Source of the DNA: a virus | DNA: 64,000 bases | IMG/VR virus record: IMGVR_UViG_3300042691_038651 | Coordinates: 36,843 to 100,842 of that record | Direction: 5' to 3' (one strand) | In this document: positions 18,667-55,784 of the stretch, piece by piece | How positions within the stretch are numbered: position 1 is the first letter of the stretch | Layout: each line of letters starts with the position of its first letter | Notes under the pieces: model-generated | The model's database searches: none | What the model was told of the DNA's origin: nothing | Seen by the model: the letters and a program-made list of their open reading frames with translations, nothing else | Made by a program: the position numbers and the translations under genes

Positions 18667-20196
18667 GTGCCTTCAAACTATCTACATAAGTTCAACACTG
18701 ACAATGTTCACGCAAGAGCAGTGATTGTAGGGCTGGTGAACTTGCTCAATAGCAAGATCCAGTTCGAAAACATCTACTCTGATACTGACACTCAGATTGT
18801 AGAGGTTCCGTTCTACTACAATTTTGGTGGAGATGAGCGTTTCTTACAGGACTATTTCCTGCAATGGAATGAGTGTCTTACTCCCAAAATGGTGGATGGA
18901 AACGTCGATCCCATACCTCGAGGTATTGTAACACTAGAATCCAGCGCTATCAATACCAATATGATGACTAATCGCTTTATACGCGGAAACTATGTCAAGC
19001 AGGTTGGGAATGATGTGCTAACATACAATGCCTTTCTCAACCCTATACCTCTGACCATGAACTTTACAGTGAAGATTGTTACAGATACTTCACTTGATGC
19101 GTTCAAAGTACAGCAGGCTGTGTTAGAGACATTCTACAAAACCCAAGTGTTTTCTGTAGAGTTCAAAGGATTCCGTGTTCCTTGTCAGGTTGGATTCCCA
19201 GAAGACCAGGGAATTGAGAAGACATTTGAGTTTACATACCAGACCGAGACTGAGATCTCATTCAATTGTCCGCTACAACTCGAGACATACTTCCCGGTTA
19301 CCGACCCTACAACAGAAAGATTTGGTGGAAACCGCATGAACTATCCAGGAGGACCTAACATTGAATGGAGTTCTGATGAGACTTACGCAAAACCAAGATT
19401 TAACATCTCAGCGCCCTCTCATCAAGAAACATACTTTTCATCAGGTACGATGCCAATCGAGTGGACAAATACAGGACCAATTACCAGAGTAAACATTTAC
19501 TGGAGATTGGTAGGAAATGTTGATTGGACTCCAATTGTAAAGAACTATCAAAACTCCGGTTCTTATGTCTGGGAAGTGCCTTTCCTCAATGCTTCCGGTA
19601 CTATTGTACCTAAAGAGACTACAAAAGCCTTTGTACAAACTGCCACTGGAGAATCGGCTAGGCTACGCGCTATCATAGATGCATTAGGAAGCGTAGACAA
19701 TATCATTGTACTCGACGGCGGATATGCATATGAAGGCACAGACACCATCATTGTTAATGATGAGACGCTCACAGTCACAGCACCTACCATTTCACCTAAC
19801 GTGGTAGCAGGTACTATCACAGGTTCTACAATATATGCGGTAGGATCTGGGTTTACGCCATCGCCAGTAAACCTAATTGAGATTAAAGTGGAGAATGCTA
19901 ACAATGAAAGGGTTTACGAAATAATGAAAAGAGAGATAACATATCAGGCCCAGGTATCATCTGGATCAAATCTTCTAACCAACATCGTACCAGACATTTC
20001 AGTTTCACAAAACTTAACAGATTTGGCTCTCTATGTAGGGATGCCTGTCGCCGGTGCCGGCATTCCAGCTGGCGCATACATTACGCAAATACTTTCTGGA
20101 ACGAACCAGATACAAATATCAACCAACGCTAACGTTTCATCTGCTTTGACCCTAATCAATGGCGGAAAACTTGATGGATCTATTACAATCAAGTAA
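18667..20196 (+). CDS. Tail sheath stabilizer/terminator (gp15-like) with C-terminal beta-rich extension
   Basis: VPFYY...ERFL, P.P..MNF...I pattern; follows a late promoter. Confidence 0.55.
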   Translation: MPSNYLHKFNTDNVHARAVIVGLVNLLNSKIQFENIYSDTDTQIVEVPFYYNFGGDERFLQDYFLQWNECLTPKMVDGNVDPIPRGIVTLESSAINTNMMTNRFIRGNYVKQVGNDVLTYNAFLNPIPLTMNFTVKIVTDTSLDAFKVQQAVLETFYKTQVFSVEFKGFRVPCQVGFPEDQGIEKTFEFTYQTETEISFNCPLQLETYFPVTDPTTERFGGNRMNYPGGPNIEWSSDETYAKPRFNISAPSHQETYFSSGTMPIEWTNTGPITRVNIYWRLVGNVDWTPIVKNYQNSGSYVWEVPFLNASGTIVPKETTKAFVQTATGESARLRAIIDALGSVDNIIVLDGGYAYEGTDTIIVNDETLTVTAPTISPNVVAGTITGSTIYAVGSGFTPSPVNLIEIKVENANNERVYEIMKREITYQAQVSSGSNLLTNIVPDISVSQNLTDLALYVGMPVAGAGIPAGAYITQILSGTNQIQISTNANVSSALTLINGGKLDGSITIK

Positions 20197-20222: not shown

Positions 20223-20231
20223 GATATATAG
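20223..20231 (+). promoter_or_regulatory. Class 3 (late) promoter
   Basis: GATATATAG. Confidence 0.7.
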
Positions 20232-20257: not shown

Positions 20258-21802
20258 ATGTCTAAACTAAGAAATAGAATTGAAGCTCTACAAGCAAGCG
20301 CCACTTCAGCAGCGGTTCTTGAAGCCTGTAACGAAGCAATTCTTCGTATTGAGCCAAACAAATCTACGGAAGGCGAGATTTTGGAAAGCCTTTTGGAAAA
20401 TCTTTCAAAAGTAGATGACGAGGTAGCAAAGCAGTTTGTCTCCATGAATGTGGTAGAAAAACGAGTTCAGGCTCTCAATGATCTAGGAGTAAAGAAATCT
20501 TTCTCTACAATTGCTGAGTCGGAAATTGCAAAGCACCCTGCGTTTTCATACATGTTTGAAAAACTACAGGCAAGCGCCAATTCACCTGAATGGATGGTAA
20601 TTGAAAGCGTAATTGCAGCACTCTCTCCTTTTAACTGGGATTCAACTGTTAATGAGTGTTTGAAAAATCTTACTGCAAATGCAGATAAGTACAGAGAGGA
20701 AATCTCTATCTACAAAATTGTTGAAAACCTAAAGAATTCTACTTCTAACTACTTATTGCCAGGAGTTTCTACATTGTTAGAAAACTACCTTGATACACGC
20801 AGCGCAGCTGACCGTGTTAAATTGATGGAGAAGACTTCACAGTATATTTTCGATCCGCATATGAAAAATCTTTACAACTTCCTTGGAGAAGCTGAAAGAA
20901 CTTTCCACATTGCAACAATCGACAACAGCTGTTCTATTAACCGTGTTTACTCTCCTGTATTTTTAGGAGAAGGCTTCGAACTATTCGCAGCCGGTGGTAA
21001 AATCTATAGAAAAGAAGGTGAGGTTATCACCGTAGCAAATGAAGAAGAAATCAATTCTCTTCCTGCTAATTTCTTGGCTGTATCATCTGTTCTTGGAAAA
21101 GAAAACGTGGTAGTTGCTGAAGGGTCTGTAAAAATCTACTCTGGAGACAAGAAAGTAGAAATCAGCGAATCAGAAGTAAAGATCAACGGAAAAGTCGTTG
21201 ATACTGCTGATATTCACAAGGTGTACTTGAACGCAGGCGTTTTCAAAATGACTGAGCGCGAGAACATCAACCACATCTATACAATCAAAGAAAACTGGGA
21301 CAGCCTTTGCGAAATGGACTTTGCAAAAGTAATCACATCAAAAGCTGAGCCGCATAAAACCATGACCGTATTCTTCATCGGCGAAAACATTTTCTTAAAC
21401 AAGACAAATCGCTTAATGAATGAAAACGTATTCTACGCTGATTGCAACGCAACTCAGACCAAGAACCTGGTTATGGAATACATGAAATTCGACATCTCTT
21501 CTACATTCTCTTCGCTTCTTACCGAAGAGACAAAAGTAATCAAAGAATCTAACGCTTTGAAAGCAGAAATGATGACTGCAATCTCTCACCTAAACGAACA
21601 AAAAGCTAAATTGGAAACTCTTCCTAAAGAGATTTCTGAGAATGCTGAAGTTAAAGATTTGATTGCTGCTATTGATGAAGAGATTAACTTCCTCAAATCT
21701 GAGTATTCAAAAGTCGACAGCGCCGAGCGTTCAACTACCAAGGTAGATGAAGGTATGGGATTCAACGTTGGAGATGAAGCGGAACTTGGAAAAAAAAAGT
21801 GA
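20258..21802 (+). CDS. Putative prohead core/internal protein, ending at a slippery site
   Basis: Many I/L-x-E-S/N motifs (ILES, LLEN, IAES, VIES); late promoter; ends GGA AAA AAA AAG TGA. Confidence 0.55.
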   Translation: MSKLRNRIEALQASATSAAVLEACNEAILRIEPNKSTEGEILESLLENLSKVDDEVAKQFVSMNVVEKRVQALNDLGVKKSFSTIAESEIAKHPAFSYMFEKLQASANSPEWMVIESVIAALSPFNWDSTVNECLKNLTANADKYREEISIYKIVENLKNSTSNYLLPGVSTLLENYLDTRSAADRVKLMEKTSQYIFDPHMKNLYNFLGEAERTFHIATIDNSCSINRVYSPVFLGEGFELFAAGGKIYRKEGEVITVANEEEINSLPANFLAVSSVLGKENVVVAEGSVKIYSGDKKVEISESEVKINGKVVDTADIHKVYLNAGVFKMTERENINHIYTIKENWDSLCEMDFAKVITSKAEPHKTMTVFFIGENIFLNKTNRLMNENVFYADCNATQTKNLVMEYMKFDISSTFSSLLTEETKVIKESNALKAEMMTAISHLNEQKAKLETLPKEISENAEVKDLIAAIDEEINFLKSEYSKVDSAERSTTKVDEGMGFNVGDEAELGKKK

Positions 21803-21826
21803 GCGTAACTGCGGTTGATTCCGCAG
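21790..21826 (+). other. Putative programmed -1 frameshift/slippage signal
   Basis: A9 run with A-AAA-AAG before the stop, followed 9 nt later by hairpin CTGCGG-TTGATT-CCGCAG. Confidence 0.7.
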
Positions 21827-22428
21827 GCAAGACAATCACTGTCGTAGACGAGGAAGGTAACACTTCTAAAGTTTCTCCTACTGAACTTAAGGCAACGGAC
21901 AAAAAACACCGTGCCAAACCTGGTAACCCTGTTGAGATCAACTCACAGGGTGACGGTGCTACTGTGGCCATTAAGGAAGAAAAGGAGGAAGGCTACGTCA
22001 ATGCCCAAATAGAGGTTGAAGTGCAAGGCGTTCCTGCCGGTACTACAGTACAAATCAAAGCTCTTGACTTTACATCCAAGGCCGACAACGACAATATCGA
22101 CATCATTCTTCCAAACAAGAAACTTGCTCAAGTAAAGAAGAAAGATGTGAAACTTTTTGAAGCTGGTGTATACAATTCTGAAACGGATATTAAAAACAAT
22201 CCAAAAACAAAAGAAAACCAACCAGATGAAGTAACCGGTAAAATTGACACAGTGTTGGACGGCGTGGAAAATCTGCTAGCAGAACTTACCGAACTTAAAA
22301 ACGTTGTAGACAACAACACCAAATTTTCATCAGAGACACTAGAAAAATGCATAGCAGAACTAAACACTTACAAGAAGAGTCTATCGGAGGAGAAAACTCT
22401 GTCGAACTCGGCGACGGTGGAAGCGTAA
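21799..22428 (+). CDS. -1 frame extension of the upstream protein (SH3-like modules plus coiled coil)
   Basis: GTG start overlaps the stop; the fusion reads FNVGDEAELGKKK-VSVTAVDSAGKTITVVDEEG. Confidence 0.65.
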   Translation: MSVTAVDSAGKTITVVDEEGNTSKVSPTELKATDKKHRAKPGNPVEINSQGDGATVAIKEEKEEGYVNAQIEVEVQGVPAGTTVQIKALDFTSKADNDNIDIILPNKKLAQVKKKDVKLFEAGVYNSETDIKNNPKTKENQPDEVTGKIDTVLDGVENLLAELTELKNVVDNNTKFSSETLEKCIAELNTYKKSLSEEKTLSNSATVEA

Positions 22429-25659: not shown

Positions 25660-26103
25660 ATGGATCACACAGCTAAAGACGAAAATTTACAACCACTCTT
25701 TCCAGGACTGCTCCCCTATGGCCACACCATAGGGGCTCCTGCTTTTAGACCTAATGAAATGGGTGTGATACTCGGCAAATCTGTCGAGGCAATGAATGAG
25801 CAGGTGGAAATGCAAAAGGCACAGATACTTCAACAGGTAGAGTTGTTGAAAAAGCAATACATGGAATTGGAAGAACGTCGAGCAATATCCTTACTTATCT
25901 ACCAGGCAGATTTTAAGTTTAAGCCTGTTACTGGTCATACATACCACCTCTATCTAAGAGATGACCATACTCTTTTCCTATCACTTATAGAACCAGGATC
26001 CTGGAACCAAACACACGTTGCAACCGTAAAACACCTAGCAGATATGACCTGGTCAGTGATAGAAAAATCCTCGGCTTTTGAGGATATATATGCTAGAAAA
26101 TAA
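25660..26103 (+). CDS. DUF2452-like protein
   Basis: LLPYG..IGAPAF, A.FKF.P..G..Y.LY, LS.I.P..W. Confidence 0.7.
   Translation: MDHTAKDENLQPLFPGLLPYGHTIGAPAFRPNEMGVILGKSVEAMNEQVEMQKAQILQQVELLKKQYMELEERRAISLLIYQADFKFKPVTGHTYHLYLRDDHTLFLSLIEPGSWNQTHVATVKHLADMTWSVIEKSSAFEDIYARK
26083..26091 (+). promoter_or_regulatory. Class 3 (late) promoter variant
   Basis: GATATATAT upstream of the fibre gene. Confidence 0.5.
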
Positions 26104-36044: not shown

Positions 36045-37914
36045 GAAGATTAACGAGGAATTTAAGAAGATGGAGCAGGGTTTGCCTGCTGATACTTCTG
36101 GATTCTTTGAAGGTAACCCGCAATACAAGGCTGCCAACATTGTATTTGAATATACAAAGGAAGAGCTGGCTGACCTGGCTCGCTGTGCAGATGATGTTGT
36201 ATATTTTGCCAACAAGTTTTGTTACTCAATGACGGATGAAGGGGTACAACAAATTACGCTTCGTCCATATCAGGAAGATATGCTGGAAGGGTTTCAGGAC
36301 AATCGATTTGTAGTGATGCTTGCATCTCGTCAGATTGGTAAAACTGTTACATCCTCAATCTTTATTGCATGGTACCTGTGTTTCCACTTTGATCGTAACG
36401 TTATGATTGTAGCGAACAAAATGGCAACAACTACCGAGATTGTTGACAAGGTAAAAACTATCATCAAAAACTTACCGTTCTTTGTAAAACCAGGCTGTAC
36501 ATCGGCTGGAGCCACTGGTATGAGATTTGATAACGGATGCCGACTCTACTCACAAGCAACTACCAAGACAGCTGCGATTGGATTTACCATTCACTTGTTA
36601 TACGCGGATGAGTTTGCACACATTCACCCTAACTTCTTACAGCAATTCTATCGATCAATCTATCCGACGCTGTCATCATCAAAGATTTCACGGATCATCA
36701 TATCTTCGACGCCAAATGGTATGAACCTGTTTTATGAGCTCTACTCAGGCGCGCTTGAGGGCAAAAACTCATATCACCCAATTAGAGTGGACTGGTGGCA
36801 AGTACCTGGCAGAGATGAAAAATGGAAGGCTCAAGAGATTGCCAACCTTGGATCCGAAGAATTGTTCAACCAGGAATATGGTAACCAATTCTTGGCTTCT
36901 TCTCGTCTTTTACTTCCAGGAACGGTGTTGGAATTTTTGCATCGGGTTTCCAAGAAGTACGTATACAAAGATCACGAAGCATTCTACGCAGATCCCGAGC
37001 TTTTCAAAGATATGACCTGGCATCCAGACTTCGATCCCGCCTCTATTGATAAAGGAGAAAAGTTTGTGATTGCTGTAGACATTGGAGATGGCGTGGGACG
37101 GGACTTTAGTATTCTGAATGTATTCCATCTTGAGCCGCAATCCAGAGCAATGATACGCAAGATCAAGGACTGGCGAGATGAGACCGGTTTCTTCCGACTA
37201 AAGCAGGTTGGACTATTTAGGTCTAATGTGGTATCGGTGGAAGACCTATCAAGAGTTTTAGAGGCTTTAATGTTTGAGGTGTTTGACTCAGAGGACGTAA
37301 AGACTGTGATGGAAATTAACTTCAAAGGAAACCTAGTATTTGAGCGAGTGGGGAGAAACAAAAACTTTTTCCCAGAAACTTTTTTACATACCAAGCATAG
37401 CATGAGCGCACCAGTACTTAAGCCAGGTGTAAAAATGCAAAAGGACAACAAAGAGATTTACTGCAGAGAACTGAGAAATTTGGCGATTGCCAAGAAAGTT
37501 CTTATCACGGAAGAGAGAACTGTAATTGAGTTGGCATCGTTTGGTATCAACTCAGCGGGTAGCTACTCTTCACAGATAGGAAACGATGACGTGGCAATGT
37601 CATGCGTTAACCTGGTAAGTTATTTTGACACAACCGACTTCTACGATATGGTAGAGGATATGTACGATAGCACTGATGAAGCTGTTAAAAATGAGATACA
37701 GGCAGCCATTGAAAAAGGCGGAGGAGCCGAGGAAATGCCGGAAGGATTCCAACTTCTCAAAGACTTGGATCCAATGATGGCCGACAATATCAGAGATATG
37801 CAAAGACAAATTCAAGGAAGCCGAGTACAACTCAGCAAAAGCGGCGGCGGAAGAACTGGTGCCGGTGGCGGAGGAATGTCCGGTGGATTTGGAGGAAGCT
37901 TTGGTAGATTTTGA
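36016..37914 (+). CDS. terL: Terminase large subunit (gp17-like)
   Basis: LRPYQ, SRQIGKT, YADEFAH, SSTPNG, VDIGDG.G.D, NDDV.M. Confidence 0.95.
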   Translation: MAKGKVWTTKKINEEFKKMEQGLPADTSGFFEGNPQYKAANIVFEYTKEELADLARCADDVVYFANKFCYSMTDEGVQQITLRPYQEDMLEGFQDNRFVVMLASRQIGKTVTSSIFIAWYLCFHFDRNVMIVANKMATTTEIVDKVKTIIKNLPFFVKPGCTSAGATGMRFDNGCRLYSQATTKTAAIGFTIHLLYADEFAHIHPNFLQQFYRSIYPTLSSSKISRIIISSTPNGMNLFYELYSGALEGKNSYHPIRVDWWQVPGRDEKWKAQEIANLGSEELFNQEYGNQFLASSRLLLPGTVLEFLHRVSKKYVYKDHEAFYADPELFKDMTWHPDFDPASIDKGEKFVIAVDIGDGVGRDFSILNVFHLEPQSRAMIRKIKDWRDETGFFRLKQVGLFRSNVVSVEDLSRVLEALMFEVFDSEDVKTVMEINFKGNLVFERVGRNKNFFPETFLHTKHSMSAPVLKPGVKMQKDNKEIYCRELRNLAIAKKVLITEERTVIELASFGINSAGSYSSQIGNDDVAMSCVNLVSYFDTTDFYDMVEDMYDSTDEAVKNEIQAAIEKGGGAEEMPEGFQLLKDLDPMMADNIRDMQRQIQGSRVQLSKSGGGRTGAGGGGMSGGFGGSFGRF

Positions 37915-55364: not shown

Positions 55365-55784
55365 ATGAAAGATCACAAAAAGGCCATCAATAGAGTGCTT
55401 TCATCTATCGACTGGCGAAAGATCAAGTCATACCACGCCAAACTTGGCATAAAGTGGGAGTACGAAATTGATAAGGAAATCGTATACAGGGTTCCCAATA
55501 TCCCTGAACTCAAAAATGAGTTGTCTACTATACTCGAACACATGGTAGAATCCAAGCTCGATTACATATCGCATGGAAGTTGGGTAATCTTTTGGGAAGC
55601 TGATTCTGGAGATATCAGGGTCATCTTTCGCTTGGCTGACTTCTCATTTGAAGATCATTCAGGAAGTAGGGAATCTCTTGAGGAGGCTTTGAAAAAGGCC
55701 GTGGAAAGAGAGGACTATGAGTACGCTGCGGTAATTCGCGACGAGATAAATAATAAGAACAATGCCAATAGCAATATCAAATAG
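55365..55784 (+). CDS. Protein with C-terminal UVR (UvrB/C) motif
   Basis: LEEALKKAVEREDYEYAAVIRDEI. Confidence 0.75.
   Translation: MKDHKKAINRVLSSIDWRKIKSYHAKLGIKWEYEIDKEIVYRVPNIPELKNELSTILEHMVESKLDYISHGSWVIFWEADSGDIRVIFRLADFSFEDHSGSRESLEEALKKAVEREDYEYAAVIRDEINNKNNANSNIK

Follow-up and report, generated by a model that had tools for sequence, protein, structure and literature searches.

Phage late proteins with recoded C-terminal extensions are well known, and so are slippage sites made of nine adenines (A9) (PMC5009743, PMC1088944). A published criterion for purposeful slippage is that homologues keep the length of a run of nine A's (PMC1088944). On the ribosome, Escherichia coli heptamers without a stimulator raise shifting 2-10-fold over a background of about 0.05%, and A_AAA_AAG is among the most efficient E. 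coli motifs once it is stimulated (PMC4066793). Here we describe a putative recoding site of this kind in a virus, within 64,000 nucleotides (nt) of DNA, called the window below, which is positions 36,843 to 100,842 of the IMG/VR record IMGVR_UViG_3300042691_038651 (100.8 kb, 100,842 bp; CheckV completeness 35%). Two open reading frames (ORFs) of the window, ORF1 and ORF2, meet there in different frames at a run of nine A's. The data indicate that programmed net -1 recoding very probably joins ORF1 and ORF2 into one longer protein, and from comparison of homologous sequences we give this reading a probability of about 0.9. The site would be a new and well-conserved example in an undescribed protein family, and what sets it apart is a slip site that falls within a folded domain and cuts it in two. 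The parts of the junction are as follows, in window positions.

20258 to 21802, plus strand: ORF1, the predicted short isoform of 514 amino acids (aa), from ORF calls, 32 homologues and alignment A1.
21790 to 21799, plus strand: slip site GGA AAA AAA AAG, with nine A's at 21790-21798 and G at 21799.
21800 to 21802, plus strand: 0-frame stop TGA closing the short isoform, read in the sequence.
21799 to 22428, plus strand: ORF2, the -1 frame extension of 209 codons and a stop, conserved from codon 1 in alignment A2.

The letters across the junction are CTT GGA AAA AAA AAG TGA GCG TAA CTG CGG TTG ATT CCG CAG. The heptamer A_AAA_AAG (21793-21799) is in phase with ORF1, and the first codon of ORF2 in the window is GTG at 21799. 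The -1 frame becomes open just seven codons ahead of the 0-frame stop, and the +1 frame is shut after five codons. Fusion of ORF1 and ORF2 gives a product of 723 aa in which the junction reads G-K-K-K-V, and the junction peptide of this predicted product is LGKKKVSVTAVD. The original prediction, made from the letters of the window, had described the ORF at 20258 as ending in GGA AAA AAA AAG TGA with nine A's and this heptamer, and the ORF at 21799 as lying in the -1 frame, and it had given a fusion peptide; the sequence agrees with it on all of these points. Readthrough under an alternative code, with TGA read as W, was considered and rejected, since the 0 frame still closes at TAA two codons on.

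A protein search with ORF1 found 32 homologues of 39-96% identity. Lengths of up to 900 aa were permitted, and none of these 32 close homologues is a fused form, which answers the possibility, raised with the original prediction, that homologues are always fused. Where the C-terminus is complete, ORF1 homologues are 514-529 aa long, and KKK is either their end or is followed by one or two further residues. DNA was gathered for 26 viral and 33 metagenome loci, and about 45 loci with 40 distinct junctions and identity down to 37% form the clade of the window. ORF1 ends in A9 or A10 followed by G in 44 of the 45 clade loci; where the run has ten A's, the additional A belongs to a GAA codon and the frame offset is the same. 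Across the clade, the 0-frame stop lies 0-3 codons past the AAG, the +1 frame is shut within 2-9 codons, and the -1 frame is open over 154-217 codons.

Ahead of the run stands GGA, TTA, GAA or TCA, a codon with a constant final A that encodes G, L, E or S. The A run is invariant across 38 distinct homologues, and K512 is always AAA. Three other invariant lysine columns in these 38 sequences have AAA and AAG at 22:16, 15:23 and 25:13. The mixture of AAA and AAG at the other invariant lysines means that synonymous sites are saturated and that constraint on the run acts at the nucleotide level. In the -1 frame, most loci are without ATG, GTG or TTG around the junction; the first such codon comes 12-182 codons downstream, and the -1 frames of two loci (L014 and L060) have none at all. 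The junction GTG is found in the window and five close relatives, and most homologues have GCA, GTA, GCT or GGC at this position. Conservation of the ORF2 protein nevertheless begins at codon 1 (mean column identity 57% in A2). That a -1 frame mostly without start codons encodes a protein so conserved effectively excludes assembly error, decay into a pseudogene and independent initiation.

Two sequences depart from this pattern. The run of one clade locus (L047, 4124-4132) has eight A's, and its ORF2 is thus in the +1 frame relative to ORF1. This could be a homopolymer miscall, or a variant that is rescuable solely by heterogeneity of run length in the mRNA. P0082, a 358-aa fragment from a 1,328-bp contig of the Joint Genome Institute, is fused in frame and reads ...GDEAELSKKKVKIIAVDETGK...; it is the fused version of a relative like P0013, and the fusion could be a homopolymer error or a genuine variant. 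Two members of the split clade have a longer ORF1 of 751-796 aa from stop to stop (L047:1899-4151 and L050:1923-4310), and P0037 has about 244 additional residues ahead of the conserved body. Three short homologues of 506-537 aa (P0045, P0048 and P0183) end in KKS or KKN directly after the coiled coil. These endings may mark other slip sites on A runs, placed elsewhere in proteins of the family; the DNA of P0045 and P0048 was sought in viral contigs and gave no match.

More distant relatives have both parts in one frame. A profile search over 1.84 billion representative proteins returned at least 388 clusters. About nine of the top clusters are split forms of 516-531 aa, and nearly all of the remaining clusters are single ORFs of 570-1700 aa with the ORF1 profile at the N-terminus. 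In two of them the match to ORF2 follows that to ORF1.

P0050, 762 aa: ORF1 profile positions 1-510 match at 401 bits, and ORF2 residues 3-116 align with residues 646-759 (hhalign probability 96.9).
P0051, 752 aa: ORF1 profile positions 1-528 match at 391 bits, and ORF2 residues 2-118 align with residues 632-751 (hhalign probability 96.7).

The homologue in LR756500 (617 aa) has an ORF1-like body joined straight to the second domain of ORF2 (hhalign probability 87.5), and homologues of 913-1117 aa have two or three in-frame repeats of a domain of about 50 aa after the coiled coil. The homologue of Prevotella phage Lak-A2 (L062:2658-7706) is one ORF of 1682 aa only when two in-frame TAG codons are read as Q; very long acidic linkers stand ahead of its C-terminal barrels. 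Because distant homologues carry both parts in one frame, the long isoform reproduces the ancestral full-length architecture, and the short isoform is the innovation of the split clade.

In ORF1, an N-terminal helical domain is followed by a central alpha/beta domain, a helical hairpin at residues 414-494 and a low-confidence tail at residues 498-514. The AlphaFold model of ORF1 has a predicted local distance difference test score (pLDDT) of 80.8, and its final 17 residues are below 50. The domains beyond this body are as follows.

21761 to 21894, plus strand: predicted Tudor/KOW (SH3-like) barrel spanning the junction, from a hidden Markov model (HMM) of the far repeats, alignment A6, the repeat model and fold matches.
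21985 to 22152, plus strand: second beta domain, ORF2 residues 63-118, from hhalign of A2 against P0035 (87.5), P0050 (96.9) and P0051 (96.7).
22153 to 22425, plus strand: clade-specific C-terminal module, ORF2 residues 119-209, from invariant A2 columns, with a helical end.

The barrel HMM was trained solely on in-frame repeats of far homologues. It scored 19.2 bits against the fusion at aa 503-547, which crosses the junction (516 in that numbering), compared with 11.9 bits for ORF2 alone and -1.5 bits for ORF1 alone. Strands 2-5 of the far repeats align without gaps with the N-termini of ORF2 proteins (A6). The repeats match the Tudor-like Pfam family CarD_TRCF_RID at 27.1 bits against a cut-off of 23, with additional weak matches to KOW, Tudor and SH3 families. 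In the AlphaFold model of one far in-frame repeat (pLDDT 80.6), a short 3-10 helix precedes the last of five strands. Foldseek gave template modelling (TM) scores of 0.65-0.75 between this model and PHF1, PHF19, SMN and Spt5, and VIA gave Z scores of 6.5-8.8 to Tudor and NusG KOW domains. The model is of a far-homologue repeat, and the window junction was placed on the barrel through the HMM and the alignment. On this map, beta1 (EAEL) is in ORF1, the beta1-beta2 loop (GKKK) comes from the slip site, and beta2-beta5 are in ORF2. An SH3-like (Tudor/KOW) barrel is thus predicted to enclose the junction, with its first strand coming from ahead of the stop, in accord with the original prediction. 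That prediction also noted a similar barrel in the ORF at 55762; the two domain HMMs gave no match there.

The second beta domain of ORF2 is the counterpart of the C-terminal domain in single-ORF homologues. Both P0050 and P0051, which are in frame, stop just before the position of ORF2 residue 119. The module from residue 119 to 209 has the invariant pattern LxExGVYxSExD...NxKTxENxP, and its last 82 nt overlap an ORF similar to gp55. The invariant L-x-E-x-G that opens this module resembles a T4-type prohead-protease site in having L-x-E and then a small residue. As a lead, the long isoform might be trimmed at this site.

Two readings do without recoding. ORF2 may be a separate gene that begins at the GTG overlapping the TGA (GTGA), coupled to ORF1 and perhaps assisted by the A-rich leader, with no fusion. 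Four-base overlaps of start and stop codons are common in phages, and the window and its five close relatives do have GTG at the junction. Most homologues lack a start codon at the junction, the barrel of a separate ORF2 protein would be without its first strand, and the single-ORF homologues hold both parts in one frame, all of which makes this reading very improbable. The original prediction had itself allowed for independent initiation of the ORF at 21799, and the lack of a start codon at the junction in most homologues speaks against it. The split may also be an artefact or a product of decay, either a miscall of a true A10 or a recently broken pseudogene. Homopolymers are error-prone, and the P0082 fragment and the A8 of L047 are what such errors would look like. 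However, 44 of 45 loci, from independent assemblies of many samples, share the -1 offset, even where synonymous sites are saturated; both ORFs are conserved at the protein level (A1 and A2), and 0 of 32 close homologues are fused. We regard this explanation as more improbable still. The 44 loci, the -1 frames without start codons and the in-frame homologues together support the original prediction that a change of frame yields products of 514 and 723 aa.

Standard decoding would stop at the TGA (21800) and give the 514-aa protein, whose last 17 or so residues would be the orphan first strand of a small barrel. A polymerase that stutters on at least nine A's would add one A in part of the transcripts, and these would be read normally as G-K-K-K-V... 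through ORF2. In the resulting 723-aa protein the barrel would be completed and followed by the second beta domain and the helical module. A ribosomal -1 slip on A_AAA_AAG would give an identical protein and may contribute, especially in a subclade that has a hairpin after the slip site. The isoform ratio, the machine that slips and the role of the protein are points that we infer here. The original prediction named both -1 frameshifting and A9 slippage, and both are plausible mechanisms here.

21809 to 21826, plus strand: hairpin of 6 bp with a 6-nt loop, CTGCGG (21809-21814), TTGATT, CCGCAG (21821-21826).

The hairpin is perfect and begins 9 nt after the G of the slip site, as the original prediction had seen. 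It is shared by a subclade of five sequences, the window and L002-L005, in which 96.7% of the cells of the alignment pair; this was equalled by 4 of 500 shuffles. The local folding energy is in the lowest 1-2.5% in the five sequences. The 51-nt segment with the hairpin has -14 kcal/mol, which is ordinary against dinucleotide shuffles (z -1.22). A downstream consensus structure was lacking in an alignment of 11 other sequences, and in the roughly 35 other distinct sequences no structure after the slip site was conserved or unusually stable. A DNA-pattern scan for further sequences near the clade found nothing beyond four contigs already in the set. The hairpin is thus a possible ribosomal stimulator in one subclade only. 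Of the elements whose conservation the original prediction proposed to check, the slip site and the stop are kept across the clade, and the hairpin is restricted to the five closest sequences. No Shine-Dalgarno (SD)-like element is conserved at 10-14 nt 5' of the heptamer (alignments A3 and A7). Farther upstream, at about 39 nt 5' of the heptamer, GAAGG (21749-21753) was noticed, in which GAA encodes the invariant E498 in all 38 distinct homologues and is followed by GG; because this is too far upstream, it is no known SD-type stimulator. For an upstream hairpin in the nascent RNA (Penno type), no consensus structure was found, and the median rank of the upstream folding energy was 0.23.

As the main mechanism across the family, slippage of RNA polymerase is the reading towards which we lean, by a modest degree. 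It is favoured by the conservation of at least nine A's, which goes past the ribosomal heptamer, and by the lack of a conserved stimulator in most lineages; E. coli heptamers shift little when unstimulated (PMC4066793). The run has at least nine A's in the sense strand, its length is conserved in diverged homologues, and every locus with the -1 offset keeps nine or more, 3 nt beyond what the heptamer needs. Several observations weigh against this preference. A G invariably follows the run and makes AAG the last codon of the 0 frame, which puts the most shift-prone bacterial heptamer in the correct phase. The 0-frame stop adjoins the slip site. In the subclade, the hairpin has a workable spacing of 9 nt, and two of its six pairs have compensatory changes at synonymous sites (UA, AU, CG; GC, AU). 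Slippage is further favoured by the slip site being the only A9/T9 run in the entire 100,842-bp record, although the scarcity of other long A runs matches the geometric decay of run lengths and is no proof of avoidance. In a relative of 202 kb (the record of L003) there is one other A9/T9 run (L070:1501-1509, that is, 195147-195155). It adjoins a GC-rich hairpin (TCCGC...GCGGA) between convergent or terminating genes and is probably the tract of an intrinsic terminator.

The chief alternative, possible and the less probable of the two, is a mainly ribosomal -1 frameshift on A_AAA_AAG, in which both lysine tRNAs re-pair one base back. The adjacent stop would help, the hairpin would help in the subclade of the window, and the extra three A's would permit E-site re-pairing or a second overlapping heptamer. 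The in-phase heptamer with its invariant AAG, the stop 0-3 codons downstream, the compensated hairpin with low folding energy in five sequences, and the efficiency of A_AAA_AAG when stimulated (PMC4066793) are all consistent with this alternative. Against it, the roughly 35 other distinct sequences have no conserved structure up- or downstream, an SD-like element is absent at 10-14 nt, nucleotide conservation reaches 3 nt past the heptamer, and the hairpin is short, with a z of only -1.22.

We also considered a wider proposal, which we regard as speculative and rather unlikely. Runs of at least nine A's might be a general isoform switch by polymerase stutter in uncultured jumbo phages, reused in many unrelated genes. 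Here it would have arisen from a single-ORF ancestor through a run placed in the beta1-beta2 loop of a Tudor-like barrel, and the abundant short form could pair its orphan strand with the barrel of the rare long form, or compete for that barrel, and so set the stoichiometry of assembly.

All large ORFs of the window are on one strand. The neighbouring genes are gp46/SbcC-like, gp15-like tail sheath stabiliser, ORF1, ORF2, gp55-like late sigma factor, gp4-like head completion protein, gp2-like DNA end protector and gp20 portal. The nearest relatives of the portal are in huge uncultured phages (LR756500, 49% identity), followed by Lak megaphages and Tenacibaculum phage PTm1. Because the portal is closest to LR756500, then Lak and PTm1, the source belongs to a lineage of uncultured freshwater jumbo phages that are distant kin of T4. 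No tRNA genes were found in the window, and blastn of the locus against a phage collection gave no match.

20223 to 20231, plus strand: late-promoter-like motif GATATATAG, 27 nt 5' of the ORF1 start codon, a putative promoter.

Exact copies of GATATATAG number eight in the window against 0.29 expected (5932, 18640, 20223, 33247, 37927, 43851, 48325 and 52769), and a further copy at 26083 has one mismatch. All eight exact copies are on the plus, coding strand and stand immediately 5' of gene starts. The genes that they precede include the tail sheath (37970), a neck-like gene (33290), the gp15-like gene (18667) and ORF1. This motif is probably the late promoter of the source phage.

The genes on both sides of ORF1 and ORF2 have features of their own. 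The gp15-like ORF (18667-20196) is, at 509 aa, about twice as long as T4 gp15, and its residues 316-413 give a weak second match to the head-closure Hc2 family (E 0.004). It may be a fused neck/tail-terminator protein, to judge from these matches. The gp55-like late sigma ORF has a single upstream ATG, and a start there gives an overlap of 82 nt with the end of ORF2 (22347-22428). Because of this overlap, ribosomes on the long isoform would cross the start region of the sigma gene.

Family matches for ORF1 or ORF2 were found neither in Pfam nor in PHROGs. Foldseek of the ORF1 model against PDB, and a VIA-wide comparison, matched nothing beyond a generic helical hairpin; no match in the ESM Atlas was usable, and matches in BFVD were uncharacterised phage proteins only. 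ORF-295 of PTm1, which is similarly placed before gp2-like and portal genes, was considered as a counterpart and rejected, having no detectable homology to ORF1, and the ORF1 profile (A1) found no match in the PTm1 genome. The original prediction had called the product a head-core protein, and this label finds no match in Pfam, PHROGs, PDB or the Atlas to rest on. A role in the virion or in its assembly is plausible from the late-promoter-like motif and the neighbourhood of neck and portal genes, and we would put no specific virion structure above even odds.

Understanding this junction matters for annotation, as gene callers split or truncate the ORF1/ORF2 gene. All 32 close database homologues are short and are unnamed or labelled "hypothetical protein", and gene callers presumably miss an ORF2 without a start codon or give it a wrong start. 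In one clade, the full-length product of a family of at least 388 protein clusters is hence hidden. Should A9 sites prove recurrent in jumbo-phage genes, a screen for them would belong in the annotation of large phages. The family is also a model for the origin of recoding, in which a single-ORF ancestor was split in a domain loop and gained a short isoform that the ancestor did not have. One subclade with a co-varying hairpin and the rest without it provide a natural contrast between slippage of the polymerase and of the ribosome.

The ORF1/ORF2 site can be compared with several known systems. Like Thermus thermophilus dnaX (tau/gamma) and Shigella mxiE/spa13 (PMC1088944; PMC5009743), it has a homopolymer of at least nine, a conserved run length and two length variants per gene. 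The long product needs an extra base, as it does in mxiE and spa13, and both other frames close quickly. Unlike the Thermus and Shigella genes, it is a late jumbo-phage gene of an uncharacterised family with the run in a loop within a folded domain, and slippage is here a prediction from DNA. With E. coli dnaX and insertion sequence (IS) elements of the IS3/IS911 type it shares the identical in-phase heptamer, the nearby stop and, in the subclade of the window, a stem-loop. It differs from them in lacking an SD-like stimulator at 10-14 nt, in a stem of just 6 bp that most of the family does not have, and in conservation that reaches nine A's; moreover, the shift in E. coli dnaX yields the shorter product, whereas here it would yield the longer one. 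In Citrobacter and Yersinia tssM, an intragenic poly-A run likewise gives two length variants of a structural component (PMC4256274); the protein family is another one, and the present site is conserved over about 40 diverged sequences. The late proteins of other phages, namely T7 10A/10B, the T3 coat protein and those of Lactobacillus phage A2 and Listeria phages A118, A500 and PSA (PMC5009743), resemble the predicted pair in being products of a late gene with a major short form and a minor C-terminally extended form. In contrast to the extension of the T7 10B type, the extension predicted here is a Tudor/KOW-like barrel and a beta domain and is not Ig-like, the slip site bisects the first added domain, and a location in the virion is a candidate only. 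The lineage is likewise a different one, that of uncultured freshwater jumbo phages related to LR756500, Lak and PTm1.

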